Under the pieces are notes generated by a model. The model searched no databases. It was not told where the DNA came from and was given only the letters and a program-made list of their open reading frames with translations. A stretch of DNA of 64,000 bases from Dehalococcoidia bacterium (GTDB taxonomy: Bacteria > Chloroflexota > Dehalococcoidia > Lucifugimonadales > Lucifugimonadaceae): NCBI GenBank assembly GCA_965204385.1, contig OZ241984.1, forward strand, positions 2,644,984-2,708,983. Direction: 5' to 3'. Both the position numbers and the translations under genes were made by a program. Of the stretch, positions 4,813 to 64,000 are shown one piece after another. Each line of letters begins with the position of its first letter. Positions within the stretch are counted from its first letter, which is position 1.

Positions 4813-4954
4813 GTCTATGCAAAGGTCATGCTATTACTTGGTTTGTTGGTTGCCAATCGGCAGGATGGCTGGAATCGAGTTGGCCAACTGGCTAGTTTGT
4901 TGTTCATACTTTTGGTTGGTGCGTAGGCGGATACGTGTTTGATAATCTTCGGAC

Positions 4955-6094: not shown

Positions 6095-6097
6095 GTC

Positions 6098-6748: not shown

Positions 6749-6839
6749 AACCTGCCCGTCCCTTCCCAGGCGCCCCCTGCGAGCGGGACGGGTTTGAAAC
6801 CCGCCCCTACGGCGTCGCCCTGGCTTTGCGAAGGGGACG
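6737..6839. repeat. Intergenic mosaic repeat with two hairpins ('ggacgggtttgaaacctgcccgtcc', 'gggacgggtttgaaacccgcccc')
   Basis: It starts on the stop codon of the response regulator. The hairpins may double as a terminator. Related to 1758-1785 and 2905-2979. Confidence 0.65.
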
Positions 6840-6978
6840 ATAGAGGTTATAGTTGAGTTAATGATTTTGTGAGAATTAATGGTTTGTAGCCGCGGCTTGT
6901 AGTTCGCCGCACGTCACGCCATCCTGTTTTTGCTTCGGCGCGCTTACGCTTGTGTTAGACGGGCCGGAGTTCTTACTC

Positions 6979-12703: not shown

Positions 12704-13088
12704 CGCAATCAATCCCCTTCATAAAAAGTGCCGGTCAAACGGTTGATAAAGGCAATTATGCGACAGGGAGCGTGTTGCCGACGAAGTTGTGCAGAAAAAC
12801 GAAAGGCCAATCGTAGCGGTTGAAAAAAATCTGAAGATTCTGTGGAATCGATCGAACCGACGATCCAATCTGATCGTCGAAATCCCTGGTGGTTCGGGTA
12901 GATCGTTGACGGGCGCTTGGGCAATGAGGAGAGTGCGCCTAACGGCGCGAGGTTCAGGTGATTCTCGGCGAGATTCCCGGATCGATCAGACATCTTGCGC
13001 GGCGCAGTTTTCCCTTGGTTTCAAATCGCAATCCTTTGTGAATGGTTAATCGATACGCGAGTCGCGGGAGTGAACTTTGCAGACTTCT

Positions 13089-35500: not shown

Positions 35501-38462
35501 ACCGACAAGTCCCCCTTCAGAAACGGTGCGCCCTGCAGCCAAACTGATCGTAACCACAGGCGTCCCGGTGCCGAACGCCCAGGCGCCGTCTCCGCTGCTG
35601 CTCTCGGCGCGCACCCGCCACCGGTAGGTACGGCCGTTGTCCAAGCTTGAGAGCGTCTGCGACGCCGTGGGCGGCGAGGTCTCCGTGCCGCGCGCGGCCG
35701 CGACCCAGGCCGTAGCCGGATTGCTGCCCGAAGCCGCCGCGTCGTTGGCCACCATCCCCGTGCCCGTCGACGGGGCATAGGTGTAGTGCACGTCGTAGCC
35801 GGTCAGTGTCCCGGCAGGCGCGGTCCAGCTCAACGCAAGCGAACCATCACCCGCGTCGGCGGACAGCGCCGTGGGCGCGGCCGGCGTGACCGTCACCATC
35901 ACGGAGCCGATGGAGAGGCTGCTCGGATACTTCGTGTCCGTGCTCGTCACGGCGTGGGTGATCGTGGATGAGCCCGCGGCCACGCCCGTCACCGTGAACG
36001 TCTGTGCCGTGTTCCAGTTGGTCGCCGTGAACGTGCGCGACGCCGGCGCCACCGTGGCGTTGGCCGTCGTGCCGCTGGTCGCCCCCACCACGACGTTGGC
36101 CGTGGGTTTCGAGTTCAGCACCACCGTGTAGGTCGTAGTCGAGGCCGCCTGGACCGAGCGCGTGGTCTGGCTGACCGTCACCCCGGCGGTGTCGTCGTCC
36201 GTGATCGTCAGCGTCACGGGGGTGACCGTGAGGCCGCTCACCGTGGTCGCGAGGATGACCGTCTCGTTGTCCTCGTCGATGTCGTCGTCGACGATCGTGA
36301 CCGTGCCCGTGGCGGAGGTGGAGCCGATGGGGATCGTGAAGGCCGAAGGCAGCGAGTAGTCCGCCGTGCCCGTGGCGGTGCCAGTCGCCGTCAGCGTCAC
36401 CGAGACCGCCGTCGTGGCGGCGCGGTTGAGGGTGGCCGTCACCGTGACGTTGCCGCCGTCCTCGGCGATGGTGTTGCTCGCCGCGTTCGTCGTCAGCGCC
36501 AGCGTCGTGGGCGGCTGCGCCGTGCTGTACATGGGCTGCCGCTCCCCGCCGTTCACCTGGATTTGCCGCACGTTGTTGGAGCTGGTCCACGTAGACCCCG
36601 ACGGCGACGCCGAGTTCTGCCAGCGTGCGGTGTTCGCGATGCCCCAATCGGTCTCGTACCCCGTATCCTCAGAGGTCGACGTCGTCCAGTCGATATTGAG
36701 GCGGCCACTTTGGGTTAGGGTCGGGTCGTAGAGCACGAAGTGGTAGGTCGTGTTTGCTGCAAGGTGGGTGCCCGCGGGCGCAGTGAAGACTTCGATGGAC
36801 CTGCTGTTGACCCCAAGGGAAGATGGCCTCGTCAGGTCGGCGAGCTTGGCGTTGGGGGAGCCGTTGTTGTCGGACCACAGCTCCCCGGTAAGGCTCGTGA
36901 TGACGATGTTCTCGACGATTTGGATTAGGACGACCCCGATGCTGGTCAGCGCGTACCCGTCGCTGTGGGCGCCCGTCCTGAACGCCTGGGCGTGCGTGAA
37001 AGCGAAGCCGCCCTTTTGCGGGCCCGCGGGCGTCTGCCCCGTGTTGCTCACCAGCGTCGACGGCGCAAGGACCGTGGCCGTGACGGAGGGGAGGCTCAGG
37101 CTGCTCCCGTAGTTCGTGTCCGTGCTGGACGCCGCGTGCGTGATCGTCGACGTCCCCGCCGTCACGCCCGTGATGGTGACCTCCTGCGCGTCGTTCCAGT
37201 TGGTCGTGGTGAAGGTGAGGGCGCTGGAGACCGTCGCCACGCCCGTCGTGCCGCTCGACGGCGTGATGGTGACCGAGGCTGTGGGCTGCGTGTTGAGCTT
37301 GACCTCGTACACCTCCGTGGAGCCGTCGATGACGCCGACGGCGGTGGAGCTGAGGGTGATGCCGGGCGTGGCCGTCTTGGCGGCGCCCTTGACGCTGAAG
37401 GACAGCACCTCGCTGTTGCCCAGTTCCGTCCAGGGGACAAACTGGTTGCCGGTGTGGGTGTTAGCGGTGTTCGCGATGCTGAAGCCCGCAGCTTTGCCTG
37501 CGTCCTCATTGTCGCTCTCCGTACCGCTGAGCAGGAGATTCACTCCCCCGGTCCAGGCGCTTGAACCGATCACCACGTAGTACGTCGTGCTTGCCGCGAG
37601 GGTGGTGCCCGTGGGCGCAGCGAAGGTCACGGGCCCCGTCGTCACGCTCGATGCCGTCGATGGCACGACCAGGTCCGCAAGCTTGGTGCCCAGGTCGTCA
37701 AGACCGGTGGTCAGCGCCGCACCGCCTGAAGTCCACACCGACGCGGTCAGCGTGCCCAGGTGAGCGTCCGTCAGGCTTGCAGTTTTGGTGGCGACATGGA
37801 AGTCGATGCCCGTGAGCGTGTAGCCGGCGGCGTTGCTCCCCGTCGTGAACGCGGTGACGTACTCATCGCTGGGCCGGTAACCGCCTGAGCCCGTTGCCTG
37901 CCCCACATTGCTGACCAGGCTGTCGGTCGCGGCGCGCGTGACGACGATGGTGTAGGTCTTGGTCGTCGTGCCGTCCTGGGCCGTGACCTTGACGTTGATC
38001 TCGTTCGCGCCCACGTCCAGCGCGAGCGCGCTGCTGGCCGAGCCGCTCGTCACCGTCGCCAGGGTGGTCCCCTTGCCCGCCTGGATGGTCGCGCTGGCGT
38101 GGTTCCTGGTAGGCGTGACCTTGATGTGCGTGACGCTGTTGGTCACCGTGGCGATGTAGTCCTCGGTGGCCGCGGCGAACGCGGGGTCGAGGGTGAGCGT
38201 GCCCGTGAAGGACGAGCCGTCGGTGCTGGTGCTGCCGGTGAGGGCGCTGAGGGTGGCGTCGGTGGACTGGGCCTGTGCATGGGCGGGCGGCGCGTGGTTG
38301 ACGAAGAAGACCGACAGCGCAAAGAGCGCGACGGTCAGGAGGAGGAGCGGAGAGAGGCGGAGGGCTAGGTTAGAACGGTTGTTTGAATATAGGGGGGGGG
38401 GTAACTGGCATGGTCGACCGCAAGACGTGTGTCTTGCTGTTGTGGTTTCCGGTGTCGAGCAT
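29501..38462 (-). CDS. Giant secreted repeat protein (cadherin-like beta-sandwich, Calx-beta, FN3, Ig-like domains); its 5' end needs a -1 correction in a G10 tract
   Basis: The continuous frame runs 29501..38467 (the track starts it at GTG 38146). It encodes a signal peptide 'RSNLALRLSPLLLLTVALFALSVFFVNHAPPAHA/QAQ' with no in-frame ATG/GTG/TTG. ATGs at 38462 (SD AGGAGG, 10-nt spacer) and 38411 lie in the adjacent frame. Calx-beta signatures 'TADYSLP..FTI..G....TVTIVDDDIDE.NETV'. FN3 'LSWTAP...GY.V.Y'. There is no LPXTG at the C-terminus. Confidence 0.8.
29819..30958. repeat. Tandem 570-bp duplication (2 copies) inside the giant gene
   Basis: Antisense shadow ORFs repeat at exactly +570 nt (29691/30261/30831 and 29952/30522). 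The encoded 190-aa units 'APTVA..I.DATIVN.SGT.EVSLSGVFDDADGDDLTITA...' are about 93% identical, with stretches over 150 nt identical. Confidence 0.85.
38392..38401. repeat. G10 (C10 on the coding strand) homopolymer at codons 4-7 after ATG 38411
   Basis: Run length is confirmed by the plus-strand ORF 38166..38513, which reads '...EYRGGGNW...' (agg ggg ggg ggt). Confidence 0.95.
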
Positions 38463-51485: not shown

Positions 51486-53570
51486 TCATCGCAGCGACAT
51501 CACGAGATTCAGGTGTTCATCGATGGTGCAGTTTGCGTCGGGTCCGATGAAGACGGTCGACTCTCGCTCTTCGACGATTGCCGGGCCGTTAAGAGTCGAT
51601 CCGGGATTGAGGCTGTAGCGATCAAATACTGGGCAATCGACGAAACGGTTTTCGTCGGTGAGGTAAACCGGGCGTTCTCCCTTGATCGGTACCGATTCGG
51701 CGTTTGATCTTGCGGATTGGAATCGTATTTCGGGGCGTGGTGGTGGCTCGGATGCTGTCATTCGCCAAGTTATTGTCTCTACGGGAACTTCGTTCAGCAC
51801 GCGCCCGAACAGTGCTTCGTATGTGGTGTCGAAGGCGGTCGCGAGTTCATCTTGGGATGTTGGGCCTAGGTTGCCGTCGGGGACGGGAACGACAATCTCG
51901 AAACCTTGTCCGACGTACCTCATGTCCGCGCTGCGTTGGATTTCGATGTCTTCAGTTTTCACTCCAGCCGATTCGATGAGGTCGATGGCGGTCGCTTCCA
52001 TGGACTTGAAGATGTCGTTTACGTGGCCCCAGTCAACGTCGTCGAGCTGGCTGATGTAGCTCTGGACGGCGGAGTATGATTTTGGCGCGACCAGCATTCC
52101 CAACGATGACATGACGCCTGCTCCCAACGGGCAGATCACCTTGTTCACCCCGAGCAGTTTCGCTACTCCATAAACGTGTAGCGGACCCGCGCCGCCGAAC
52201 GCGACGAGTGCGCTGCCTCGGATGTCGAGCCCTTGCTCGGCGGCGTGCATTCGTGCGGCGGTGGCCATGTTTTCGTTGACTACTTCGTGGATGCCTCGCG
52301 CGGCTTGGGTCACGCTCATGCCCATCGGCGCGGCGAGTCGGGCATCGATGGCTGTCCGAGCGGCATCTGGATCTAAGGCCATCTCGCCACCTAGGAAGTA
52401 ATCAGGATTGAGTAGCCCCAGCACCAGATCTGCGTCGCTGACGGTCGGTTCTATTCCACCTAACCCGTAACACGCAGGTCCAGGATCGGCGCCTGCGCTC
52501 TGCGGTCCGACCTTCATCAGTCCCAAAGGGTCGATGTATGCGATGCTGCCGCCGCCGGCGCCGATTTCGATCATGTCGATCGCTGGGACTTTGAGCGTTA
52601 GGCCGCTGCCTTTCTTGAAGCGATGCTCGCGTGCGGCTTCAAATTCGTTTGTGCGCGACGGCGATCCGTCGGTGATAAGACATAGTTTGGCGGTCGTGCC
52701 ACCCATGTCGAATGACAGCAGGTCTCGGTGTCCGAGGGTTTCACCGTAGTAAGCGGCCGCCATTGCACCGGCTGCCGGACCGGATTCGATCAGGCGCACC
52801 GGGAAAGATCTTGCTGCTTCCAATGTGGTAATCCCGCCTTCAGAAAGCATCAGATAGATGATGCCTCCGAATCCGAGCGACCTCAATCCGTGTTCCATCT
52901 CAGCGAGGTGTCTTCGTAATGGCGGATCTACGTAGGCGTTGGCAACGGTGGTAGAGGTGCGTGGATATTCGCGCACCTCGGGTGCGATGTCGGATGACAG
53001 TGACACGGTGTAGTGGGGATGTCGCTTGCTTAGGTAGTCGCGGATTGCAAGTTCGTGGGACGGGTTTCTGTATGAGTGGAGGAGCGCGACGGCGATTGTT
53101 TCGACGCCGCTTTTCTCGAAGGTTGCCATGATCTGGCCGAGTGATTCAAGATCGAGCGGAACCAGAACTTCCCCGTCAAAGCTCATTCGCTCAGGTACCG
53201 GTCTCCTGAGGTGTCTCGGTACTAGAGGTTCGGCACGTCGAGCGGTGAGGTCGTACATGTCGTACCGCTGCTCGGTGCCAGTCTCTAGGACGTCTCGAAA
53301 CCCCTCGGTGGTGATGAGGCCAACCTTTACGCCCTTGCGTTCCAGCAAGAGATTGGCGACCAGCGTCGTGCCGTAGGTGACCAGTGAAATGTCGCTGACC
53401 TCGAATCCGGATCGTTCCGCGGTTTCGCGAGTGCCTCGGACTATCCCAACTGCGAGGTCGTCTTGGGAGGTCAGAGTCTTGCCGATGGAGAAGAAACCGG
53501 TGTCCGAGTCGTGGGCAACGAAGTCAGTAAACGTACCGCCGACGTCGACGCCGAGACGTACTTCCGACAT
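51486..53570 (-). CDS. hyuA: Hydantoinase/oxoprolinase family protein, A subunit (HyuA-like)
   Basis: 'LGVDVGGTFTDFV' N-terminus, 'SFDMGGTTAK', and length 694 aa. Confidence 0.9.
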   Translation of the reverse strand: MSEVRLGVDVGGTFTDFVAHDSDTGFFSIGKTLTSQDDLAVGIVRGTRETAERSGFEVSDISLVTYGTTLVANLLLERKGVKVGLITTEGFRDVLETGTEQRYDMYDLTARRAEPLVPRHLRRPVPERMSFDGEVLVPLDLESLGQIMATFEKSGVETIAVALLHSYRNPSHELAIRDYLSKRHPHYTVSLSSDIAPEVREYPRTSTTVANAYVDPPLRRHLAEMEHGLRSLGFGGIIYLMLSEGGITTLEAARSFPVRLIESGPAAGAMAAAYYGETLGHRDLLSFDMGGTTAKLCLITDGSPSRTNEFEAAREHRFKKGSGLTLKVPAIDMIEIGAGGGSIAYIDPLGLMKVGPQSAGADPGPACYGLGGIEPTVSDADLVLGLLNPDYFLGGEMALDPDAARTAIDARLAAPMGMSVTQAARGIHEVVNENMATAARMHAAEQGLDIRGSALVAFGGAGPLHVYGVAKLLGVNKVICPLGAGVMSSLGMLVAPKSYSAVQSYISQLDDVDWGHVNDIFKSMEATAIDLIESAGVKTEDIEIQRSADMRYVGQGFEIVVPVPDGNLGPTSQDELATAFDTTYEALFGRVLNEVPVETITWRMTASEPPPRPEIRFQSARSNAESVPIKGERPVYLTDENRFVDCPVFDRYSLNPGSTLNGPAIVEERESTVFIGPDANCTIDEHLNLVMSLR

Positions 53571-55199
53571 CTACTGTCTGCTCCGTCGGTTGAGGCCGTA
53601 GATTTCTTTGGCTGCGGTTTCCGAGATTAGTTCGTTGCGGAGATCCTCGCGCACCAATTCCAAGTCGCGTTCTTGGGGGATTCCGTATCCACCGCCTCCA
53701 GCGGTTACTAGATGAATGACCTCGCCTGGGCCGAGTGCTGTGCGCCCTTTGGCCGGTAGCGCGCGCCCGTTTTGTTCAGGTTCCGTCGCCATTCCGTGGG
53801 CTCCGGCGCGACCACCTGCTTGACCACCGCTCAGCCCCTCCGCCGGGAAATCCCACCGCTCGGACATCACCGACAACTCTGACCGCCTGGGCGACTTGAC
53901 TTCGATCACGATATCTTGCCCGCATCCTCCGCGATACCGTCCGGGGCCGCCGGAGTCGGCGAGTAGCTCTTTCTTCCAGAACACTAAGGGCGAGACGGAC
54001 TCGGAGACCTCGACAGAGCCCGGTATGGAGTTGGTGGGGAATGGGCAGCAGTGGATGCCATCTTCGGTGCTGCTGGCACCCATTCCGCCGCTAAGGAACT
54101 GCATAAGTGAGAACGGACGCATGGAACCATCCACGCCGGAAAAGAACGAGATGTATTGCGGTGTCGAACCAGAGTCGGCTAGCACGGTGTCCGGTAGTAC
54201 CGGTGCGAGTGCGCCGAATACCGCCGCCGTGATGCAATGACCTGTCAGGTGGCGCGACGACACGGCCCTTGGATAGGTGGCGTTGAGAATGCTACCTTCG
54301 GGTGCTTTGATGGTGAACGGACGGTAGGATCCCTCGTTGCGATACGTGAGCGAATCTAAGACGCATTTGAGCGGGTAGGTGGTGAATGCCCATGTGTAGG
54401 CGTATACGACATTCACGCCGCCTTGGTCGACCTGCTCCGAAGTTCCGGCAAAATCGACCTCCAACTCGTCGTTGTCGATTGTGATCGCGCAAGCAATCTG
54501 GATGGGATCGTCGAATCCGTCGAGTGAAATTGTGTGGGAATATGTTCCGTCGGGTAGATTTCGAACGGCACGTCGCATTACATCTTCGGCGCGCGACTGG
54601 ATGTTTTGGCTCAGCGATTCCAACAGGTTTACGCCGTACTCCTCCATGAAGCTGACGAGTTGGCGGCCCGCAATCTCGCAACCAGCCACCATCGCCATGA
54701 AATCGCCTATGACGGGTTCTGGGACACGCACGTTGTAGCGGATCAACTCGAAGAGGTCTTCGTTCGGTTCCCCGGCGGAGAAGAGCTTCATGGGCGGCAC
54801 GCCGAGTCCTTCTTCGAATACCGATCGGTTGTCGGCGGAAAAGATCGAACCACCAATGTCGGATGCGTGGGCGATGATGCCGGAGAAGGCTACGAGCTGA
54901 CCGTCCAGAAACACGGGTGTCGCCATTGAGAAGTCGGGGCGATGGCCCGTGCCCATCCACGGGTCGTTGGTTATGACTACGTCGCCCGGTTGCCACGTCT
55001 CATGCGGAAAGCGCTTGAGGAAGTGCTTCACTGTGCGCGACATGGTGCCGACGAATGACGGGATCGAGCCTCGGTTCTCCGCCAGCGTGTCACCGTTGCG
55101 GTCCATCAGGACGCATGCATAGTCGTTGCTCTCACGCACGACAGTCGAGAAAGAAGTGCGTACGAGTGTCGTCGCCGACTGATCTGCAATGGAGATCAA
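53571..55199 (-). CDS. hyuB: Hydantoinase B/oxoprolinase family protein (HyuB-like); true start probably upstream
   Basis: 'LISIADQSATTLVRTSFSTVVRESNDYACVLMD' and 'GGGGYG' near the C-terminus. The conserved family N-terminus 'DPVTLEILWNRL' is encoded in frame upstream of the first canonical start (TTG 55199). Confidence 0.85.
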   Translation of the reverse strand: MISIADQSATTLVRTSFSTVVRESNDYACVLMDRNGDTLAENRGSIPSFVGTMSRTVKHFLKRFPHETWQPGDVVITNDPWMGTGHRPDFSMATPVFLDGQLVAFSGIIAHASDIGGSIFSADNRSVFEEGLGVPPMKLFSAGEPNEDLFELIRYNVRVPEPVIGDFMAMVAGCEIAGRQLVSFMEEYGVNLLESLSQNIQSRAEDVMRRAVRNLPDGTYSHTISLDGFDDPIQIACAITIDNDELEVDFAGTSEQVDQGGVNVVYAYTWAFTTYPLKCVLDSLTYRNEGSYRPFTIKAPEGSILNATYPRAVSSRHLTGHCITAAVFGALAPVLPDTVLADSGSTPQYISFFSGVDGSMRPFSLMQFLSGGMGASSTEDGIHCCPFPTNSIPGSVEVSESVSPLVFWKKELLADSGGPGRYRGGCGQDIVIEVKSPRRSELSVMSERWDFPAEGLSGGQAGGRAGAHGMATEPEQNGRALPAKGRTALGPGEVIHLVTAGGGGYGIPQERDLELVREDLRNELISETAAKEIYGLNRRSRQ

Positions 55200-55489
55200 C
55201 CTGTTCCAAAGGATCTCCAGTGTTACTGGATCAAATTCTGTCTTGGTGTTCGTCGACGTGACCTCCGACCTCGGCTTTCGATTCGCGCTTGTCGAACGAT
55301 TAGGGATGCGACCATCTCGATGAATGACGCGCGAATTCTAGCACCTGTGAAGGCACCAATAATCGATGACTATCGTTACAGGACGTTCGCGTGATATTGA
55401 TTAGTTTGCGCTCGAATATATGTCATCCAGCGTCGATTTACTCTCATTGAACCAGAAAATAGTCGCTTCGGCCCGTGATAAACTGCGCG

Positions 55490-57970
55490 ATGCAAATGAA
55501 CCAGGTACTCGAAAGGATGAGCTGGCTGGTCACGGCGCGCCCGTGGGTCACGATCATCGTCCTCGTCATCGTCACCGTTGTCCTTGCCGCCGGAGCTAAT
55601 CTCCGTGCACCGCCGACGGAAGGTGCGAGTGTGGCGTTTTTGCCGCCAGGGCATGCGATTGCGAACGCGACGCGCGAGATTGACGAATTCTTCGGCGACT
55701 CTGGCGAGATCAGCATAGTAACCATCATTTTCCGCGGGGACGCGTTGACGCCAAGCGGTTTGACTCAGATGGACGGTCTCCTTGATGAGATCGTCGGGGA
55801 CTCTGGCGTAAGCGAGTTGCTGGTGCCGGTCGGTGCCGTGGTCGCGCCGTCGACCGTGATCGGCGCATTGGTGCAAGCCCAAGGCGGAGATGCGATAACT
55901 CAGGAAGTAATCGATTTCGCGCGGACGATTCCGGAGGTTCAAGGAGCGCTAGATGCGATGACCGGGACCGACACGGACGGCACGCAGGTGGCGATCGCAA
56001 ACATCCGTCTTACCGACACCGGTGACGAACGCATCCAGATAGCTGAGCGTCGGATTTACGAGTTGGCCGATGAGAACGAAGGTCCATTGAGCGTCAGCAG
56101 TTTGTCCTCTGTGATCGTCGAGGATGAATACACGGAGGCCACGGAGTCGGGTATGGGACCGCTGATCGGTCTGGCACTGGTGCTGATCGCTTTGCTGCTT
56201 CTGGTCTTCACGCGCACCTTCTCAGATATGTTGTTGACGCTGACCGGACTCATCTTTTCGATCGTCTGGATTGTCGGCGCAGAGGGTTGGCTAGGGCCAA
56301 ACGGTCTAAGCCTGATAGGACCACCGAGTTCGCTCACTGCGATGATTCCAGTGATCGTCATCAGCCTCACTGTGGATTATGCGATTCAAGCTATCTCGCA
56401 CTACCGTGAACAGCGAATTGAGGGTCTTGCGGTTGTTCCGGCGATACGCAAGGGGATAAGCATTGTCATGATCCCGTTGACTCTGGCCGCGGTGACGACG
56501 ATCGTAGCTTTCTTGGCTACGCTGTTCTCGCCGATCGGAGTGATTGCCGACTTCGGCGTTGTTGCAGGACTGGGCGTTGGGTTGAGTTTGATCGTTATGC
56601 TGACGCTGATACCGGCCGGCCGGGTGATTATTGATCGCCGGCGCGAGTCACGCGGCACATTGGCGCCTCCGCGGCCGATCTCGAACGCGTTACCAGGAAT
56701 CACACCGGTGGCGGAACTGATCGGGAGAGCGGTCACGCGATGGCCAGTGCCCTTCATCGCGGCGATTATTGCAGTGACGATCGGGCTAGGGTTCGCCGCA
56801 ACGGGACTGAAATCTGAATTCAACATCCGGGATATCCTCCCGCGCGGTGGGAGTGTGCTGGCGGATATGAACACCCTCGACGCATCAGTCGGCGGTTCAA
56901 CGGAGGTTGCCAGTGTGCTTGTGAAGGCAGAGGTGACGGAGATTCGGACGCTATTGAATCTTGAAGACCTTACGACCGCATTTGCGGACGAAAACCGCCG
57001 GCCGGCGGCCGTTGCGGGACCGATTCAGACGTCTTACTACGATTACCTTTACGACTGGATCGAAGACAGTGGGGAACCCGGAGACAGATACGATCCGGAA
57101 CTCGCTGCGATGTTCCAAGAAGCGTCCGAAGGAGTGCATCTTGATCCGAGTTTGATGCAGCGGATCTTGGATAGGCTCGGAGCAGAGGAACCCGAGCTTG
57201 TGCGCTTGCTGATAAACGATCCGGATGGTATCGACACAATGTTGCTCCAGTTTCCGGCGTACACCAACGATCCCGATGGGACGAAGGAGCTTCAAGAAGA
57301 TATCGAGGCGCTGTGGCAAGGCGATGACGCCGCAGTTACAGCGACTTCGGAAAGCATCCTCGGCGTGACGGTGCAGGGCCAGATCACCGACCGACAGACC
57401 GAGGCGATCAGCACAACTATCGCCATCGCGCTGGTTATCCTCTCAGTCTTCTTTTGGGTGACTTTGCGACAGCCTGCATTAGGCCTCGTCGCTGTTGGAC
57501 CCATCGTACTCGTCCTGATATGCGTGCTTGGAACGATGGCACTGCTGGGTATTCCATATTCATTGATCACCTCGATCATCACGGCATTGTCGATCGGTAT
57601 CGGTGTGGACTACACGATCCATGTGATCCATCGATATCGCGAGGAGTTCTCCCGTCTGCGTGACCCGGAGAAGGCGGCGATACGCACATTAAGCACCACA
57701 GGATCGGCGTTGTTGGGCTCTGCGCTGACGACGGCGCTCGGCTTTGGAGTGCTGATCGCCTCGCCGCTGCTTGCATCTCAACAGTTCGGCATCACAGCGA
57801 CGATAACAATCGTCTACTCGCTGATAGTGTCCGTTTTGGTAGTGCTTCCCGCGATGGTGGTCTGGGGCGCGTACCAGAACATGCGGTTACGGTCGATGGT
57901 TGAGCGGGAGTGGGCGGAACTCGACGAAGCGATCGAGGGCATCCACGAACGCTACGACCGAGAAGCGTAG
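55490..57970 (+). CDS. MMPL/RND-superfamily (HpnN-like) lipid transporter
   Basis: Two-fold 1+5 TM architecture with large loops. 'SVSSLSSVIVEDEY' and 'ALSIGIGVDYTIHVIHRYREE' are RND/MMPL TM-bundle motifs. ATG at 55490 (GTG 55475 is also possible). Confidence 0.85.
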   Translation: MQMNQVLERMSWLVTARPWVTIIVLVIVTVVLAAGANLRAPPTEGASVAFLPPGHAIANATREIDEFFGDSGEISIVTIIFRGDALTPSGLTQMDGLLDEIVGDSGVSELLVPVGAVVAPSTVIGALVQAQGGDAITQEVIDFARTIPEVQGALDAMTGTDTDGTQVAIANIRLTDTGDERIQIAERRIYELADENEGPLSVSSLSSVIVEDEYTEATESGMGPLIGLALVLIALLLLVFTRTFSDMLLTLTGLIFSIVWIVGAEGWLGPNGLSLIGPPSSLTAMIPVIVISLTVDYAIQAISHYREQRIEGLAVVPAIRKGISIVMIPLTLAAVTTIVAFLATLFSPIGVIADFGVVAGLGVGLSLIVMLTLIPAGRVIIDRRRESRGTLAPPRPISNALPGITPVAELIGRAVTRWPVPFIAAIIAVTIGLGFAATGLKSEFNIRDILPRGGSVLADMNTLDASVGGSTEVASVLVKAEVTEIRTLLNLEDLTTAFADENRRPAAVAGPIQTSYYDYLYDWIEDSGEPGDRYDPELAAMFQEASEGVHLDPSLMQRILDRLGAEEPELVRLLINDPDGIDTMLLQFPAYTNDPDGTKELQEDIEALWQGDDAAVTATSESILGVTVQGQITDRQTEAISTTIAIALVILSVFFWVTLRQPALGLVAVGPIVLVLICVLGTMALLGIPYSLITSIITALSIGIGVDYTIHVIHRYREEFSRLRDPEKAAIRTLSTTGSALLGSALTTALGFGVLIASPLLASQQFGITATITIVYSLIVSVLVVLPAMVVWGAYQNMRLRSMVEREWAELDEAIEGIHERYDREA

Positions 57971-58094
57971 CAGACGCTGGGCTTAAGATTTTCTCCCAAC
58001 TTTCGGGGAAATGTCTCGAGGATAAAGGGGGAGAAATGCCCGTAGTAAACCCGCCCTCTTGGGAATGGCGGTGGTTGTTTCAAAAGTTTCTCGC

Positions 58095-59129
58095 CTAAAG
58101 GGGTTTACGGGCTAGGAAACAGTAGAGCGGAGTGAAGATACCCGACTTGCCACCCGCGACGTAAGCGTCTGCGGTGCGATCCAGGAGTCGGACAACGTCT
58201 GCGGAGCCTTTGGGCAGAATCCGCACCACCTCGGCGAACTTTGTTCCAGCAACTGCCGCTTTACGGCCCCACGGTAGCCTGCGCAAGGCACTGCCTAACG
58301 TTCCGTGGCGACTTTCCATAGGTTGGTACCAAGGTGTTGACGGTCCTAGTTGGACGTCTCGATCTATCCCTTCCAAGACTCGGAATCCCACAGTTTCGAG
58401 CGCTTGGTTAACTTCCTGAAACGTCGCAATGTCGTTTAGCGCAATGCCACGCATCAGATCTTGCTTGATTTCTTGATGCCGGTCATCGCTCGGATCGAAC
58501 TCGTCCGTCAAACACATCTCCTGTCCCCAAAACAGGGCTCCGGGTTTCAGCACTCGGAAAATCTCGGCAAAGGCTCCTTGCTTGTCGGGCGCATGGCATG
58601 TCGACTCGATGGCGTAACCACGGTCGAATGTGTTGTCTTCGATGGTGCTCATATCCATAAAGCTGCACGGGTTGAGATCGACCATGTGGTCGATGTTGGC
58701 TTCAGCATTCAACTGTCTCGCCATCCCCAATTGGATGGCGTTGATGTTGATGCCGACGACTTTCACTCCCGCCTCGCGCACGACGCGACGCATCGGACCG
58801 CCAACGCCGCAACCAACGTCTATAACATTCATGCCCGGTTGCAGTTCTAGCTTTGAGATCATCAATCGTTGATGTCTGACTTTGGATTGCTTGAGGCTTT
58901 CATGAGGCGTCAAGGGCGCGAAGTGGAGCGATTCACCCCAGCCCCAGATCATGAATCCGCTACAAAGGTCGTAGTAGTCTTTAACGGTTTCGGCGTGGTC
59001 GTAGCCGTTCGCGCTGTCGGCTTCCGACTTCGCTCGATCTACCCAGCTGTCGAGATGTTGCACGCGGCGTGTGACATCGGAATCTCCGTACGCGTCTCTC
59101 AGCTCTTTCGATAGTTTGCCCAGCTGCAT
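58095..59129 (-). CDS. Sterol 24-C-methyltransferase (ERG6/SMT1) family SAM-dependent methyltransferase
   Basis: 'YYDLCSGFMIWGWGESLHFAP', 'VIDVGCGVGGP', 'FDRGYAIESTCHAP', 'PWYQP' and 'YVAGGKSGIFTPLYCFLARKP' match the four SMT signature regions and the ERG6 C-terminus (from memory). ATG at 59129; an alternative GTG lies at 59171. Confidence 0.85.
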   Translation of the reverse strand: MQLGKLSKELRDAYGDSDVTRRVQHLDSWVDRAKSEADSANGYDHAETVKDYYDLCSGFMIWGWGESLHFAPLTPHESLKQSKVRHQRLMISKLELQPGMNVIDVGCGVGGPMRRVVREAGVKVVGININAIQLGMARQLNAEANIDHMVDLNPCSFMDMSTIEDNTFDRGYAIESTCHAPDKQGAFAEIFRVLKPGALFWGQEMCLTDEFDPSDDRHQEIKQDLMRGIALNDIATFQEVNQALETVGFRVLEGIDRDVQLGPSTPWYQPMESRHGTLGSALRRLPWGRKAAVAGTKFAEVVRILPKGSADVVRLLDRTADAYVAGGKSGIFTPLYCFLARKPL

Positions 59130-59249
59130 CGCGTGCTTCTTCCGATCGTTAGTTGGTCTGCGATGAAGCACAGGTCAGAATTCCGAACCATCGATTCCCC
59201 TCCTTCATCGGGGTGCGGATCGGGTCCCGAGGTGATGTCATGTGGCGGG

Positions 59250-61277
59250 TCACGCAGGTATTTCGCGCCTCTGTTCGGCGACGTGGAATTTCAACTTCTT
59301 GCTCACAGAAAGCGACGGGAACGGGTCGATCTTAAGCTTGTAGTTCGCAGGCACTTCGAGCGTGAAATAGTGCGCGATCATTAACAGGTTGATGGCCAGA
59401 TGCAGTTCCATCTGCCTTGAACCGAGGCATGTGTGTGTCCCTAGCCCGAAGGGTGCGTAACCGGAACCGTGATGCTCGTTGCGCGGAGGCAGGTAACGGT
59501 CGATATCGAATTTCCAGGGATCGGGGAAGACATCCTCCATGTAATGGGCGGCGGCTTGAGCGATGTGTACCTGCGTGCCTTCCCGTAATTCGTGTCCTTC
59601 GACTGAACACGTATTCATCACAGTTCGCATCGACATCGGGACGATCGAATAAAGCCTAAAAGTCTCCAAGATGAAACGGATGGTCACGTCGATTGCTTCC
59701 GGGGTGAAGGCGTCGCGATCCGGATCGCCGTCGGCGAACAAGACATCTGCCTCACCGCGAATGCGTTCGTAAAGCTCTGGCTGCGATGCCATTGAATAAA
59801 CACAGAAGCCAAGGGCGTCGCCGAGGTACACGCTGGCGATTAGCGGCGCAGATAGCGCAAACCTGAGGTTAGATTCCGGTACAAACTGGGGATCGCTCGC
59901 ATGCAGACTCAACAGGTCATCAGCAAGGTCCCGAGGACATCCAGAGCGTTGGGCGGGTGTATGGCCGCTCTGGACTCGATTCAGCAGCACGTCGATGCTC
60001 TTCTTGCGGCGTTTCATACCCGGGGTGTTCAGCATGAACTTAGGCAATATTTTCACTACGTGAGTGCTGAGTGCTCGTGTTTTATATTCGACGAGGTCGT
60101 CGATGAGGTCCTGCGAATCAACGCTGATCATGATCGGAGAGTTTTGCGAGTTGATCATCAGTCGGCACATCCGGACTGCGGGCATAGAGTCGCCAACTGT
60201 CCAATCGGACATAAAGTTCCGGGCGTTGTTGTAGACGAGTTCCAGATGGCTTTCCAACCTCGAACGCGAGTAGGCGGAGTTCATGGACTTTCGGAAACGG
60301 AAGTGGTCGGCACCGTCCAGCGCGGGCAGTATTCCAGAAGCTCCATAGACCTTTTCGAAGTCTTCTAGGTAGTCTCGAGCTCGCAGATAGTTGCGTCCGT
60401 GCCTATGTGCCCAGTAATTTGTCTCAGCGCCGGCTAAAACGGTAATTGGTTGCTTCCGAAAAGGTGGACGAATCTGAAAGACTGGACCGTGCTTTTCTGC
60501 GAGTTGAGCAAAGAATGCATTCAAATTACCGTCGCGAAGATGACGATTGAACACCAATTCGCGGAGCGGTGCGACTGGGATCGGCCTGGACAGAGATGGA
60601 CGTCGAAGCGCCGGTCCGACAAGGGTCTCGGATACCGCTTTACTGATCGAACGCGCGATCAGATCCATCTGGCATATAAGCGCAATACGCTCTTCTGCCT
60701 CTTCATCGAGTTGGAATATGAAGCGGATAACATCGCAGGTATTGATAAGTGAGATGATGATGATGTCCCGTGGGTCGGGGATCTCGTCGTTGAATATCTC
60801 GTTAGCAATGCGGGCTTTGACGAATTGAAGCGCTGTGCCGTCTTGGGAACTGGTCATCATCTCTGAGTGCCACACTTTGCTAGACAGCGTCCAGTAATCT
60901 CCTTCGTGGTGATCGAGAATCTCTAAGTCGACCAATCGTTCCAGGACCGAATCGATAACGGCATCTGCGTGTGAAGCAAAACGCTCGATCCAATACTGGG
61001 TGTCGCGTTGAGTTGGTTCGCCCCCGATCGCCTTAAGGAACGGGTCAAGCACAGGATCGCCAGTTTCTGTTTCGTCGATAAGAAACAGAGATTCCATATC
61101 GGTATCGATGCGAGATTGGAGCGACAGTTCAGCGAGTACGGCTCCTACGACGGCGCAGTTCAAGTCCCAACCCGCAATTTGCCTAAAGTACCCGGTTTCC
61201 TCATTGAGAAGCATGAGGATGAGTTCCTGCGGCAGAGTGAGTTGGTGGGTTACCGTTTCGTCTATAGTCAGTGTCAT
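59250..61277 (-). CDS. GPP34 (GOLPH3/VPS74-like) domain fused to cytochrome P450
   Basis: The N-terminal ~225 aa 'LTLPQELILMLLNEETGYF......WDLNCAVVGAVLAELSLQSRID' are GPP34-like. The C-terminus has the P450 ExxR 'ETFR' and the haem loop 'FGLGTHTCLGSRQMELHL'. It is a single ORF. Confidence 0.85.
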   Translation of the reverse strand: MTLTIDETVTHQLTLPQELILMLLNEETGYFRQIAGWDLNCAVVGAVLAELSLQSRIDTDMESLFLIDETETGDPVLDPFLKAIGGEPTQRDTQYWIERFASHADAVIDSVLERLVDLEILDHHEGDYWTLSSKVWHSEMMTSSQDGTALQFVKARIANEIFNDEIPDPRDIIIISLINTCDVIRFIFQLDEEAEERIALICQMDLIARSISKAVSETLVGPALRRPSLSRPIPVAPLRELVFNRHLRDGNLNAFFAQLAEKHGPVFQIRPPFRKQPITVLAGAETNYWAHRHGRNYLRARDYLEDFEKVYGASGILPALDGADHFRFRKSMNSAYSRSRLESHLELVYNNARNFMSDWTVGDSMPAVRMCRLMINSQNSPIMISVDSQDLIDDLVEYKTRALSTHVVKILPKFMLNTPGMKRRKKSIDVLLNRVQSGHTPAQRSGCPRDLADDLLSLHASDPQFVPESNLRFALSAPLIASVYLGDALGFCVYSMASQPELYERIRGEADVLFADGDPDRDAFTPEAIDVTIRFILETFRLYSIVPMSMRTVMNTCSVEGHELREGTQVHIAQAAAHYMEDVFPDPWKFDIDRYLPPRNEHHGSGYAPFGLGTHTCLGSRQMELHLAINLLMIAHYFTLEVPANYKLKIDPFPSLSVSKKLKFHVAEQRREIPA

Positions 61278-61457
61278 CAGTTTCGCCGACGTTCCTGCGC
61301 CTGATAGACTTGGAACACATGGACTAGCCACTTTAAGGGATACTGTATCACACTGAATCAGAGGGTTTCTAGGTGCGATTCAGCGCAGGGCTAGAACGTT
61401 TGCAGAGTTCTGATCAGGTTGAGGTCACCCGGACTTCCGGCCGAAATTCACCAAACG

Positions 61458-62504
61458 ATGGTAACTCGACATAGCGTGCGAGCGGTCACTCAGACGCCTG
61501 CTCCGTTTCCCGAAGGCTGGTACTTCATCGCCAAGCGTGAAGCCATCGAAAAAGCTACCCTCGTTGCGAAAACATGGATGGGGGAAAGCGTCCTTGTTTG
61601 GTGTGACGGTAACGGGGCGATCTGCGTGTCGGAATCAGTCTGTCCCCACTTGGGATCCGATCTAGGCCCTGAAGCAGGAGGATGCGTACGCGGAGGCAGG
61701 ATAATATGTCCTTTTCACGGCTACGAATTCGATACAACTGGTCAGTGCGTAGCTACTCCATTCGCTCCTCCTCCAAAGACCGCCAAACTGCGGGTCTATG
61801 AGACGCAAGAGGTAGCGGGGATGGTCTTCGCATGGTGGGGGATAGATGGGAGACCGCCGCAATGGAGATTACCGTCGGATGATTTGGAACAATCAGACTG
61901 GACTGACTTAAAGGTCAATACCCTCCGTTTTCCCGGCCATCCACAGAGCACGACAGAGAATTCAGTGGACCTGGCGCACCTACGCTATGTCCACGGCTAC
62001 GACAACGTTGACGTGATCGTAGACGCCGACATCGACGGCCCGCTTTTGCAGACAGCATTCGACTTCAAAAGAACCCGCACTATCGCTAGGTGGGTAAACA
62101 TGACCTTTGAGGTCTCGGCTAGAACGCTGATCTACGGTCTGGGATACTCGTACGTCTCAATTAGGGAGCATTCGATTGGGATGGACATGAGACTCTGGGT
62201 GCTGGCTACGCCGGTCGACGGTACGCTTATGGACCTGTCACTCGCTTCGCAGATCCGGGAACTACGAAGCCCCAAACGATTGTTCGCGGGGCTAGGCTTC
62301 CTCCCAACGCGATGGCGTGCGCCGATCATGAACAAGTTCATGGCGGCTGAGCAACGCAACGATGTTTTGCAAGACGTTGTAATCTGGAGCCGCCAACAGC
62401 ACAAGACCCGTCCGCGTCTATGCCGTTCCGACGGTAAGATCATGCCATTCCGTTACTACTGCGCGCAGTTCTATCCAGAATCGAGCGAAAACGGTGCCGC
62501 CTGA
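61458..62504 (+). CDS. Rieske [2Fe-2S] non-haem-iron oxygenase, alpha-subunit-like
   Basis: 'CPHLGSDLGPEAGGCVRGGRIICPFHGYEF' (CxH-x17-CxxH). The C-terminal catalytic-domain-sized region contains 'VDLAHLRYVHGYDN' (candidate Fe ligands). Confidence 0.85.
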   Translation: MVTRHSVRAVTQTPAPFPEGWYFIAKREAIEKATLVAKTWMGESVLVWCDGNGAICVSESVCPHLGSDLGPEAGGCVRGGRIICPFHGYEFDTTGQCVATPFAPPPKTAKLRVYETQEVAGMVFAWWGIDGRPPQWRLPSDDLEQSDWTDLKVNTLRFPGHPQSTTENSVDLAHLRYVHGYDNVDVIVDADIDGPLLQTAFDFKRTRTIARWVNMTFEVSARTLIYGLGYSYVSIREHSIGMDMRLWVLATPVDGTLMDLSLASQIRELRSPKRLFAGLGFLPTRWRAPIMNKFMAAEQRNDVLQDVVIWSRQQHKTRPRLCRSDGKIMPFRYYCAQFYPESSENGAA

Positions 62505-62513
62505 TGACCCCAG

Positions 62514-63908
62514 CTAGGCTTTCCGAAAGCGCGATCCGTACAGGATGCTGCCGTAGTAGTTGAAAACTCTCTTGGCTTCCGGATCGTCGAAGGGATAATC
62601 TGCACCGATCTGTCTCGCGGCCGCTAGTCCGGTGATAAAGCAGGTTTCCTGGCTGTTAATCAGTGTGTGGGCGCCGCAGTGCCAAGTTTGTCGTCTCCCT
62701 TGTACGAAGCGGAAGAGATTGACGATCAATGCGACGTGACGCACATCGTGGATGATGTGTTGAAACCGATGCCGTTTGAGGATTTTCCGCTCGTCGATCG
62801 GATTGACGGGATTGTATGTAACCAGACAAGGCTTGTCTGATCTATTAACCCAAGGTTGCTGGTTGTGCATTATGTAGGTGACTTCATAGTTGTCCGGTTT
62901 CGGGCCGTACTGCTGGATGTGATTGCTACGGGTTTCGAGAGGTTGCGTTTCGTTGCTGGGAAGAACTGATGCATCGTGGTGGACGACCGCTTCATGATGC
63001 AGCGAGTCGTCGTAACGGATCGAAGAGAGTATGTAACGTTCCAGCCGTGTGGGATTGTCGAGGATCGCCAGCGCTTGATCCGCGTTGCACGCGAATATCA
63101 CGTCGTCGAACGCCTCTTGAACTCCCTCCGCATCCTCGAGCACCACCGACTCCGCATTGCGGTAGACCTTTCGGACTGGCCGGCTCAGATAGATTTTGTC
63201 GCGGAAGTTGGCCGTTAGGTTTTCGTAGATGCGGCGCGTACCTTGATCCCAAGTCCACATAGGTGTAGCCCGTTCGATATCGAAGAAATCTAGATACCGG
63301 GTGAATAGAGCGGCGGGCATGTCGAATACGTTGGTCGCCAGTACGAAGTTGACGAACATCGGCTTGAGGACTTGGTACTTGAACTCATCCGAGAAGCGTC
63401 CAAGTTTCAACAGGGTGCCCATACTGATGTAGTTGAAGGGGTTGAGGGCGTTGAGGAACTTAGACCGCGACCGGGTCAGCCAACCGATCCGGTACATGCG
63501 CTTCAACAACCGTTGGAACTTCGCAATCTCGGATTGCAAATCCTCCTTAATCTCGGAATCGTAGTCATGGGCATATATGCGCCCTCCGTACTCAACCGTG
63601 TAGCTAAATTTGGTGTCGAGTAGCTCGATACCGAATTGCTGCATCAAAAGAACGATGTGGTGATACACCGACGGTATGCAGGCGGTGACTGAGATGTCGA
63701 AAGGGATCGAGCTGCCATCATCCTGCGGCATGTCGACGGTAACAGCGTTGCCGCCAATCTGATCCTGAGCCTCGAAGATACGAAAGTCGAACCGATCAGA
63801 GTGATGGTGCAAGCCCCATGCAGCGCCTAAACCTGCAACACCTCCGCCGACTATGGCGATTCGTCTAGGCATCGGTCCTTTTCCAACCTGTTTCGTAGCG
63901 GATTTCAT
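62514..63908 (-). CDS. FAD/NAD(P)-binding oxidoreductase, COG2907 'amine-oxidase-like' family
   Basis: 'RIAIVGGGVAGLGAAWGL...FRIFEAQDQIGGNA' dinucleotide fold, and a C-terminal 'WHCGAHTLINSQETCFITGLAAARQIG'. Confidence 0.8.
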   Translation of the reverse strand: MKSATKQVGKGPMPRRIAIVGGGVAGLGAAWGLHHHSDRFDFRIFEAQDQIGGNAVTVDMPQDDGSSIPFDISVTACIPSVYHHIVLLMQQFGIELLDTKFSYTVEYGGRIYAHDYDSEIKEDLQSEIAKFQRLLKRMYRIGWLTRSRSKFLNALNPFNYISMGTLLKLGRFSDEFKYQVLKPMFVNFVLATNVFDMPAALFTRYLDFFDIERATPMWTWDQGTRRIYENLTANFRDKIYLSRPVRKVYRNAESVVLEDAEGVQEAFDDVIFACNADQALAILDNPTRLERYILSSIRYDDSLHHEAVVHHDASVLPSNETQPLETRSNHIQQYGPKPDNYEVTYIMHNQQPWVNRSDKPCLVTYNPVNPIDERKILKRHRFQHIIHDVRHVALIVNLFRFVQGRRQTWHCGAHTLINSQETCFITGLAAARQIGADYPFDDPEAKRVFNYYGSILYGSRFRKA

Positions 63909-64000
63909 CGTGACGCCACGCCGAATTACTTTCCAGCGCGGTAAATCATCCTAAAACCGCTGGCCAAGTGAACACACCATTTTGCCAAAATCGACTAAGT

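Follow-up and report, generated by a model that had tools for sequence, protein, structure and literature searches.

What would a bacterium gain by joining a domain of the eukaryotic GOLPH3/Vps74 type to a cytochrome P450? The question is raised by a 64,000-nucleotide stretch of contig OZ241984.1 (assembly GCA_965204385.1, Dehalococcoidia bacterium, positions 2,644,984 to 2,708,983; hereafter the window), in which one gene encodes an N-terminal GPP34 (GOLPH3/Vps74-like) domain followed by a complete P450. Eukaryotic GOLPH3/Vps74 binds phosphoinositide at membranes. Analysis of the bacterial fusion revealed that genes of four other families, namely a sterol C-24 methyltransferase (SMT), a Rieske oxygenase, a flavoprotein and an MMPL transporter, recur beside it across phyla, and that the residues forming the phosphatidylinositol 4-phosphate (PI4P) pocket of GOLPH3 are largely lost from its GPP34 domain. 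We propose that the fusion may act as a cytoplasmic oxygenase in a horizontally shared module for the tailoring and transport of sterol-type lipids, with GPP34 as a targeting or adaptor domain that does not depend on PI4P. We give this proposal roughly an even chance of being correct.

The fusion protein and its family

The fusion gene lies on the minus strand at 59250..61277 and encodes 675 amino acids (aa) from an ATG at 61277. The open reading frame (ORF) is uninterrupted over 59250-61331 (-) and would encode 693 aa if begun 18 codons upstream, at an in-frame GTG at 61331. Homologues are essentially all 672-680 aa long, each with both PF05719 and PF00067, and this agreement with the 675 aa counted from ATG 61277 indicates that the coordinates in the initial annotation, 59250-61277, are exact; the gene call on a public contig identical to the window over the fusion gene is also 675 aa. 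Pfam GPP34 (PF05719) matched residues 33-235 of the 693-aa form (15-217 of the 675-aa form) at 100.2 bits and E 2.1e-28, against a gathering cut-off of 29.1 and with profile positions 1-200 of 201 covered, and Pfam p450 (PF00067) matched residues 265-677 of the 693-aa form at 121.4 bits and E 5.7e-35. In the numbering of the 675-aa form, used from here on, the protein consists of the GPP34 domain (residues 15-217, 60627..61235 (-); Pfam, profile alignment and fold match), a basic, proline-rich linker with the sequence TLVGPALRRPSLSRPIPVAPLRELVFNRH (residues 218-246, 60540..60626 (-)) and the P450 domain (residues 247-659, 59301..60539 (-); Pfam, PDB sequence matches, Foldseek and motifs). The linker has a pI of 12, low pLDDT at residues 221-229 and two invariant prolines, P222 and P234, and its position may be likened to that of the hinge after the membrane anchor of microsomal P450s. 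The single ORF of about 675 aa, with an N-terminal GPP34 pattern and a full P450, that the initial annotation had read from the sequence was thus borne out, the GPP34 pattern both by the profile match and by the fold match to GOLPH3/Vps74 described below.

The initial annotation had taken this architecture to be undescribed, which proved wrong. In Ferreira et al. 2025 (Microbiome 13:4, PMC11706023), GPP34 proteins fall into two classes, short (GPP34_S) and long (GPP34_L), and 656 of the 663 long proteins combine GPP34 with a cytochrome P450. According to that paper, GPP34 plus P450 is the second commonest GPP34 architecture and is exclusive to sponge symbionts, coral symbionts also being mentioned; GPP34_L occurs in 80% of sponge Dehalococcoidia genomes, at one to six copies per genome. 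The GPP34_L family is described there as monophyletic, spread over many phyla, multi-copy and expressed, and fusions of GPP34 to a Rieske domain or an ABC ATPase are reported too. In architecture, size and taxonomic setting the window's protein is a bona fide GPP34_L member, and nothing structural sets it apart. The further statement of the initial annotation, that bacterial GPP34 proteins normally stand alone, is half true for sponge symbionts: by the same account stand-alone forms do occur, but 47.5% of the proteins are fused.

A search for relatives returned 2339 proteins with E <= 1e-5. All of the best 120 clusters, which were listed and share at least 66% identity with the query, have both domains, and the names among them include Chloroflexi, Opitutae, Nitrospira SB0662 and Ca. 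Palauibacter. A scan of GTDB at one genome per species gave 163 relatives of the fusion, and the best 80 loci of these were examined. The closest among them belong to metagenome-assembled genomes (MAGs) of Dehalococcoidia/SAR202, at 85-90% identity, and, like the Poriferisocius, Poriferisodalis and Palauibacter MAGs among the relatives, are of sponge type, which suggests that the window comes from a Dehalococcoidia/SAR202-type symbiont; the 80 loci as a whole come from MAGs of Dehalococcoidia, Acidimicrobiia (Ca. Poriferisocius, Poriferisodalis, Aldehydirespirator), Latescibacterota, Gemmatimonadota, Arenicellales, Binatia, Bacteroidota and Vicinamibacteria. From 241 million records of Joint Genome Institute (JGI) metagenomes, 100 relatives were recovered and 79 loci examined, many on short contigs. 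All 79 lie on contigs from a handful of metagenome projects. By Supplementary Table 2 of Brown et al. 2023, 33 of them (LXNJ, LXNI, Ga0209021, JGIcombinedJ30088) derive from Petrosia, Sarcotragus or Aplysina metagenomes, and for another 25 (MKWU01) we infer an origin from Aplysina because locus L081 mirrors the SAR202 bin127 locus L002. A relative 83% identical to the query, with Rieske and flavoprotein genes adjoining (L009, JAAXHR010000286.1), belongs to a MAG whose isolate name, 'Plut_88894', suggests a coral, Porites lutea, instead of a sponge.

An exhaustive HMMER search against 1.84 billion cluster representatives further yielded 368 clusters (50% identity) at E < 1e-30, dozens of them full-length (655-690 aa) and 27-42% identical. 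The two-domain ORF was present in 45 full-length representatives of 50%-identity clusters, with the domains confirmed by Pfam in the ten that were scanned. The fusion is old and diversified, its relatives being spread over MAGs of at least seven phyla and over sponge metagenomes. Two variant architectures also came to light by Pfam, GPP34-GPP34-P450 in an 872-aa protein (P0131) and GPP34-GPP34 without a P450 in one of 444 aa (P0192); neither type is mentioned in the portion of Ferreira et al. 2025 (PMC11706023) available to us.

An artefact, in which neighbouring GPP34_S and P450 genes had been joined through a sequencing or assembly error, would be conceivable since a P450 is often encoded no more than five genes away from a GPP34_S gene, so that split forms exist (Ferreira et al. 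2025, PMC11706023). The ORF is uninterrupted in the window, and the continuous two-domain ORF of ~675 aa recurs in hundreds of independent assemblies, closed long-read MAG chromosomes included, while the linker carries the invariant residues P222 and P234. The recurrence in independent assemblies already refutes the artefact, to which we attach a negligible probability.

Pocket, charge and active-site motifs of the two domains

An AlphaFold model of residues 1-240 (pLDDT 76, pTM 0.78) found GOLPH3/Vps74 as its sole matches in the PDB (TM 0.51-0.70, E 3e-8 to 4e-4). The best was 9qpq_B (TM 0.70, E 3e-8), and the next, unrelated match had an E of 0.6. Because a pairwise PDB search with the GPP34 domain gave only a weak match (Vps74, E 0.27), a profile of 19 homologues was needed, which matched 3kn1 at E 3.7e-5. 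The domain thus shares with GOLPH3/Vps74 (PDB 3KN1, 9QPQ, 2ZIH) the fold (TM 0.64-0.70) and the Pfam family, both being helical domains with a beta-hairpin that are N-terminal or stand-alone. It differs in sequence, at ~18% identity, and in context, as part of a bacterial enzyme in a cell that has no Golgi, COPI or glycosyltransferase clients.

We take the PI4P-pocket residues of human GOLPH3 to be W81, R90, R171 and R174 (Dippold 2009, Wood 2009). The profile of 19 homologues was aligned to GOLPH3 (9qpq/3kn1), with the GOLPH3 residue numbering checked against the 9qpq alignment, and the corresponding columns were inspected in 46 diverse family members. The tryptophan, W81, corresponds to W37, which is invariant in the clade of the window's protein and stands in a column that is variable in the 46 members. 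The three arginines are replaced by valine, aspartate and isoleucine. R90 aligns with V44 at high posterior probability, in a column (A36/V4/S4/T/G) that is basic in none of the 46 members; R171 aligns with D105, in a column that is mostly D/E; and R174 aligns with I108, in a column that is Arg in half of the 46 members and I/L/V in the window's clade. For R171 and R174 the posterior is lower, but the alignment is backed by the register of the LV/LV helix that follows. A loop of 10 residues, which in GOLPH3 precedes the R171 helix, is missing. Moreover, residues 1-220 carry a net charge of -27 with a pI of 4.2, and the same holds more widely, the family median pI being 4.7 for the GPP34 domains while the P450 domains are neutral to basic, at 9.2. 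On this alignment, a basic PI4P pocket of the GOLPH3 type is not conserved in the window's GPP34 domain, and the acidity of the domain argues against a basic membrane-binding surface. Together, these features weaken both the idea of a secreted effector, weighed below, and that of simple electrostatic docking on membranes; docking, which the initial annotation had proposed for GPP34 besides delivery of a lipid substrate, would, if any, have to proceed via hydrophobic contacts or a protein partner.

Neither a signal peptide nor a transmembrane segment was found in the fusion protein, whose N-terminus reads MTLTIDETVTHQ and whose most hydrophobic 19-aa window scores 1.84. The GPP34 domain is acidic like ferredoxins, and a role as a cryptic redox or Fe-S partner was considered and rejected, no cofactor motif being present; its cysteines C41, C181 and C202 are invariant in the close clade and unconserved in the wider family.

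In the P450 domain, the ExxR motif ETFR (59655-59666 (-)) and the Cys-ligand loop FGLGTHTCLG (59421-59450 (-)), both named in the initial annotation, were verified by translation at these coordinates, and ExxR and the FxGxxHxCxG loop are conserved family-wide in the 46 diverse members. The I-helix is atypical, with ASVYLGD (59817-59837 (-)) in place of AGx(E/D)T. Across the family this helix reads A-G-(L/I)-T, with a hydrophobic residue at the acid position, compared with the usual A/G-G-x-(D/E)-T, and the Thr position is Thr in 33 of the 46 relatives and Tyr in the window's clade. Since the acid-alcohol pair is not kept, ordinary monooxygenase chemistry is not assured: O2-dependent hydroxylation is likely, and substrate-assisted or peroxide-dependent chemistry may be the alternative.

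The P450 matched a CYP102-like P450 (4e-19) and CYP51 structures (1e-14 to 1e-15) by sequence in the PDB. By Foldseek, the P450 part of the full-length model matched CYP184A1, CYP204A3, CYP21A2, Methylococcus capsulatus CYP51, CYP17A1 and BM3 at TM ~0.7, with identities of 15-21%; CYP11A1 was also among the best fold matches, and CYP184A1, the best of all, was crystallised with oleic acid. No NCBIfam equivalog came near its cut-off for the fusion protein. Judged from these matches, the P450 is of the eukaryote-like (E-class) type and falls outside every structurally characterised CYP family. Orthology to CYP51 was rejected, as the ~19% identity (E 1e-14 to 1e-15) fails the >40% identity rule. 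The full-length AlphaFold model (pLDDT 68.6, pTM 0.57) is too weak for a reliable domain interface or for the geometry of GPP34 pocket and P450 channel.

Bacterial E-class P450s fused to a second domain are known from the CYP51-ferredoxin of M. capsulatus (6MCW/7SNM), which acts on sterols, and from the CYP102 P450 BM3, and both CYP51 and BM3 types are among the best fold and sequence matches of the window's P450. Unlike these proteins, whose partner domains lie at the C-terminus and hold a redox cofactor, the window's fusion has its partner at the N-terminus; this partner has no cofactor motif and comes from a lipid-binding and adaptor protein family. With only 15-21% identity to the CYP51 and BM3 types, the window's P450 represents a different CYP family. 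A search for small ferredoxin-like ORFs around 81 loci gave spurious motif matches only, so that no dedicated redox partner is conserved near the fusion.

Genes beside the fusion

Four genes around the fusion in the window deserve attention. About 120 nt downstream and on the same strand lies a gene call for an SMT (SMT/ERG6) homologue of 344 aa (58095..59129 (-)), in which a Sterol_MT_C match of 62 bits accompanies the methyltransferase domains; the adjacent SMT homologue mentioned in the initial annotation is therefore real. Upstream, and divergently transcribed, is the gene for a KshA-like Rieske non-haem iron oxygenase of 348 aa (61458..62504 (+); Pfam Rieske + KshA_C, 87 bits), whose CPH...CPFH and D..H....H motifs are intact and whose best solved relatives are KshA steroid 9-alpha-hydroxylases (PDB, 2e-24). 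Next to it stands the gene for a flavin oxidoreductase of the 'amine oxidase' fold (FAD_AO, 452 aa, 62514..63872 (-); Pfam Amino_oxidase), with LkcE (1.4e-24) and 2b9w (3e-10, annotated 'putative aminooxidase') as best PDB matches; we take 2b9w to be a fatty-acid double-bond isomerase of Propionibacterium. On the other side, convergent with the SMT gene, an MMPL/HAE3-type RND membrane transporter of 831 aa is encoded (55475..57970 (+)), matching Pfam MMPL at 147 bits, Sterol-sensing at 43 and Patched at 42, and NCBIfam HAE3 at 240 bits and HpnN at 104 bits.

To these 159 loci (the 80 GTDB genome loci and 79 JGI loci introduced above), tblastn was applied with the window's neighbours as queries, over at most 10 kb on each side of the fusion. 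The KshA-like Rieske oxygenase was the most frequent companion, at 50/80 genome loci and 41/79 metagenome loci (91/159 in total), followed by the flavoprotein (36/80 and 21/79, total 57/159), MMPL (34/80 and 21/79, total 55/159) and SMT (21/80 and 31/79, total 52/159). At least one of the four partners was present at 67/80 and 64/79 loci, or 131/159 overall. The partners accompany fusions of seven named phyla, and also fusions that are only 41-46% identical to the query (L147-L159). Examples of closed MAG chromosomes with the module are OZ242350.1, OY759581.1 and OZ242286.1. When all non-overlapping ORFs in the 80 genome loci were clustered without bias, the four partner families ranked second to fifth, behind the fusion itself, and the next neighbour family reached at most 13 of the 80 loci, in one lineage only. 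By a reasoned rather than computed estimate, chance co-occurrence within 20 kb would be of the order of a few per cent, given a few copies per genome of 3-4 Mb.

Across phyla, the fusions are 64-67% identical, the FAD_AO proteins 68-78% and the partner proteins overall 55-78%. The fusion frequently occurs in tandem copies or at more than one locus per genome. A second copy in the same locus, in tandem or nearby and 57-62% identical to the query, was seen at L018, L021, L024, L027, L028, L031, L035, L047, L049, L103, L110, L111 and L118, and contig Ga0209754_1000018 has two separate loci (L118 and L145). In a Ca. Palauibacter MAG (L075, 2752-5977) the second fusion copy is broken after ~90 P450 residues by an insertion with a transposase ORF (4898-5977), and the KshA-like Rieske gene, ending at 3810, overlaps the upstream GTG start (3797) of the broken fusion ORF. 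Taken together, the cross-phylum identities, the duplicates and multiple loci and the copy disrupted by an IS element point to horizontal spread of the module. In the window, the region 58000-64000 has a G+C content of 52.5-55%, compared with 56-60% in most of the window; this is compatible with a foreign origin and is not strong evidence alone.

One of the loci connects the fusion to an assayed enzyme. Brown et al. 2023 (PMC10070321) reported that 8 of 10 assayed symbiont SMTs methylated desmosterol, which ones being given only in a figure, and one of the contigs whose SMT was assayed, LXNJ01000389.1 from Petrosia ficiformis, is our locus L122. The gene order there is short-chain dehydrogenase/reductase (SDR), SMT, symporter, flavoprotein, fusion, MMPL, Rieske, MFS transporter and LppX/LprG-type lipid-binding lipoprotein. 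The MFS transporter and the LppX/LprAFG-type lipoprotein beside Rieske and MMPL (15774-18004) recall the mycobacterial lipid-export pair LprG/Rv1410c.

Known bacterial sterol genes, namely the sponge-symbiont SMT clusters (PMC10070321) and SdmAB and BstABC of Methylococcus, resemble the module in several respects: the SMT homologues come from the same sponge metagenomes, with one contig in common, and a Rieske oxygenase and an RND-type transporter stand beside the sterol enzymes. In contrast, the de novo sterol cluster of Brown et al. (JGIcombinedJ30088_10000835; PMC10070321), which comprises SMO-OSC, ERG11, ERG24, two SMTs, sdmA and sdmB, is a separate locus without GPP34-P450; it was rejected as a fusion locus, the P450 there being an ordinary ERG11/CYP51 and the contig giving no fusion match. 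Nor is the Rieske protein of the window an SdmA (NCBIfam SdmA, 32 bits against a cut-off of 600). Fusions of GPP34 to this same Rieske family were absent from its 120 best matches, all ~350 aa. Actinobacterial steroid catabolism (KshA/KshB and CYP125) likewise places a Rieske protein with a KshA C-terminal domain beside a P450 and MMPL, but the window's module differs in its low similarity to KshA, in its P450 class, in lacking KshB, KstD and Hsa genes and in having a methyltransferase.

The flanks of GPP34_L are not analysed in Ferreira et al. 2025 (PMC11706023), and the word "sterol" does not occur in that paper. Conversely, P450, Rieske and GPP34 have no occurrence in the text and supplements of Brown et al. 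2023 (PMC10070321), and literature searches for any link of GPP34-P450 to SMT, Rieske or sterols found none. The recurrence of the four partner genes near GPP34-P450 is apparently unreported.

Elsewhere in the window no sterol-related gene was found, and no cyclase is present either in the window or among the conserved neighbours. The hydantoinase/oxoprolinase A and B pair (51486-55199 (-)) that adjoins the MMPL gene was rejected as part of the module, as it is common to only 1 of the 80 loci (L008). Two giant ORFs, at 13077-21404 (+) (2775 aa) and 29501-38146 (-) (2881 aa), contain fn3, cadherin-like, Calx-beta and Big_2 domains and look like the eukaryote-like adhesins typical of sponge symbionts; the G+C content of the stretch with the second is 66-70%, compared with ~57% elsewhere. 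Just upstream of the first, an ORF of 883 aa with a phage-integrase domain (10061-12712 (-)) may belong to a mobile element. The public contig that is identical over the fusion gene (L160) has the same adjacent gene order and, at 5959-7260, reaches past the right end of the window. Beyond the flavoprotein it encodes DUF402, DUF2177, a GNAT acetyltransferase, a multicopper oxidase and a gamma-glutamyl transpeptidase, none of which is a conserved neighbour of the fusion.

Proposed function and alternatives

From the neighbourhood and the domains we infer a sterol-type substrate, action in the cytoplasm and an adaptor role for GPP34. As a haem-thiolate oxygenase, the fusion would most likely work inside the bacterial cell, in the cytoplasm and at or close to the inner membrane, and its neighbours suggest that the substrate may be a sterol or sterol-like lipid, host-derived or imported. 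The module would combine lipid transport by an MMPL/RND protein with methylation of sterol side chains and with the activities of the fusion, a KshA-like Rieske oxygenase and a flavin oxidoreductase of desaturase or isomerase type. In the fusion, GPP34 stands where eukaryote-like P450s have their N-terminal membrane anchor, ahead of the basic, proline-rich hinge, and would bring the P450, itself soluble, to its substrate or a partner at the membrane, by targeting, as an adaptor or by handling lipid, without being a PI4P sensor of the GOLPH3 type. GPP34 is also joined to a Rieske domain and an ABC ATPase, both of them soluble catalytic units acting at membranes, and it occurs in duplicate; this would suit a module that recruits such units to a substrate or partner associated with the membrane. 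The initial annotation had guessed at a lipid or sterol-like substrate from the adjacent SMT; the guess was reasonable and is now stronger, with SMT at 52 of the 159 loci and the Rieske, flavin oxidoreductase and MMPL genes recurring as well.

Several observations weigh against this proposal. The Rieske protein is distant from KshA, matching it over the N-terminal 170 residues, and is no SdmA orthologue. LkcE, the closest solved relative of the flavoprotein, acts on a polyketide amide and not on a sterol, and the 'sterol-sensing' match of the MMPL protein reflects general RND/Patched homology and is unspecific. As SMT is present in only about one third of the loci, a sterol may be the substrate of just part of the family. 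Furthermore, direct binding to anionic bacterial membranes is hardly what one would expect of so acidic a GPP34 domain. Family-wide, the acid normally found in the I-helix is missing, and the window's clade has Tyr for the catalytic Thr; neither a ferredoxin nor a reductase is conserved near the fusion.

The only published hypothesis places the protein in the host. Ferreira et al. 2025 (PMC11706023) suggest, as an idea only, that GPP34 proteins of sponge symbionts, the long form included, are secreted effectors that bind host PI4P on phagosomes and block phagolysosome maturation, with the P450 as an accessory. The distribution suits such a role: the same source has the family confined to sponge and some coral symbionts, absent from free-living relatives and with its genes expressed in Aplysina aerophoba, and the JGI loci stem from a small set of projects, 33 of 79 being traceable to sponges and 25 more (MKWU01) probably so. 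The domain is eukaryote-like and has kept the GOLPH3 fold, and W81 in the clade; the P450 is closer to eukaryote-type P450s, which depend on cytochrome P450 reductase (CPR), than to classical bacterial ones, so use of a host reductase would be possible in principle. Nevertheless, three of the four PI4P-pocket residues are unconserved, with the R90 column never basic in the 46 members, the GPP34 domain is strongly acidic, the protein has no signal peptide, and the gene is tightly and recurrently linked to a bacterial inner-membrane transporter and cytoplasmic lipid-modifying enzymes and to no secretion genes. We therefore consider a secreted effector improbable. Breakdown of host sterols or other lipids for carbon, begun by the P450 in the manner of CYP125/CYP142 together with the KshA-like oxygenase, appears similarly doubtful. 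KshA is indeed the best solved relative of the Rieske protein, and the flanks in Acidimicrobiia often contain SDRs, a family III CoA-transferase, an acyl-CoA dehydrogenase-like gene, an FMO/BVMO-like flavoprotein and a second, class-I P450. However, such catabolic-looking neighbours occur in at most 13 of the 80 loci and in one lineage only, no KstD, HsaA-D or other 9,10-seco pathway genes are among the conserved neighbours of these 80 loci, in the PDB ranking the P450 shows no relationship to the CYP125/142/124 class, and a methyltransferase that adds side-chain carbon would be an odd partner for degradation.

A module of the proposed kind might instead serve another hydrophobic sponge metabolite, such as a polyketide, an alkaloid, a terpenoid or an unusual fatty acid, methylated by the SMT-type enzyme. 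The LkcE-like flavoprotein suggests polyketide chemistry and its weaker match to 2b9w, if our assumption about that protein is right, fatty-acid chemistry; some two thirds of the loci lack an SMT, the lipids carried by MMPL transporters are of many classes, and CYP184A1, the best fold match of the P450, was crystallised with oleic acid. Sterol_MT_C, on the other hand, is specific to sterol C-24 methyltransferases, the Rieske protein has the KshA C-terminal domain, and related symbiont SMTs methylate desmosterol in vitro, one assayed SMT lying within such a module (PMC10070321). A non-sterol substrate thus seems to us rather unlikely, much as the effector and the catabolic route do. 

Returning to a sterol-tailoring module with GPP34 as adaptor, we can extend the proposal, more tentatively and with clearly less confidence, to the symbiosis itself. 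The fusion would then be the signature enzyme of a horizontally exchanged module by which sponge symbionts of many phyla import host sterols through MMPL, re-tailor them by SMT methylation followed by oxidation or desaturation by the P450, Rieske protein and flavoprotein, and use or return them. GPP34 would have changed from sensing PI4P to handling sterols or docking a partner, bacteria without a cyclase would contribute to the unconventional sterols of demosponges, and sterol remodelling, not PI4P mimicry, would link the family to persistence in the host.

GPP34-P450 is a very abundant, symbiosis-specific family, for which a single functional hypothesis is in print, that of a secreted effector binding PI4P. 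A concrete, testable alternative emerges from the conserved SMT/Rieske/flavoprotein/MMPL neighbourhood, together with the lost PI4P pocket, the acidity of the GPP34 domain and the odd I-helix. For enzymology, the family provides a new, compact type of P450 with a built-in non-redox partner domain. Sterol remodelling by symbionts would bear on how they cope with a phagocytic host, and on the geobiological dispute about which organisms make the 24-isopropyl and 26-methyl sterols found in sponges. If it is true, there would be a bacterial input into the side-chain-alkylated precursors of the disputed 'sponge' biomarkers.

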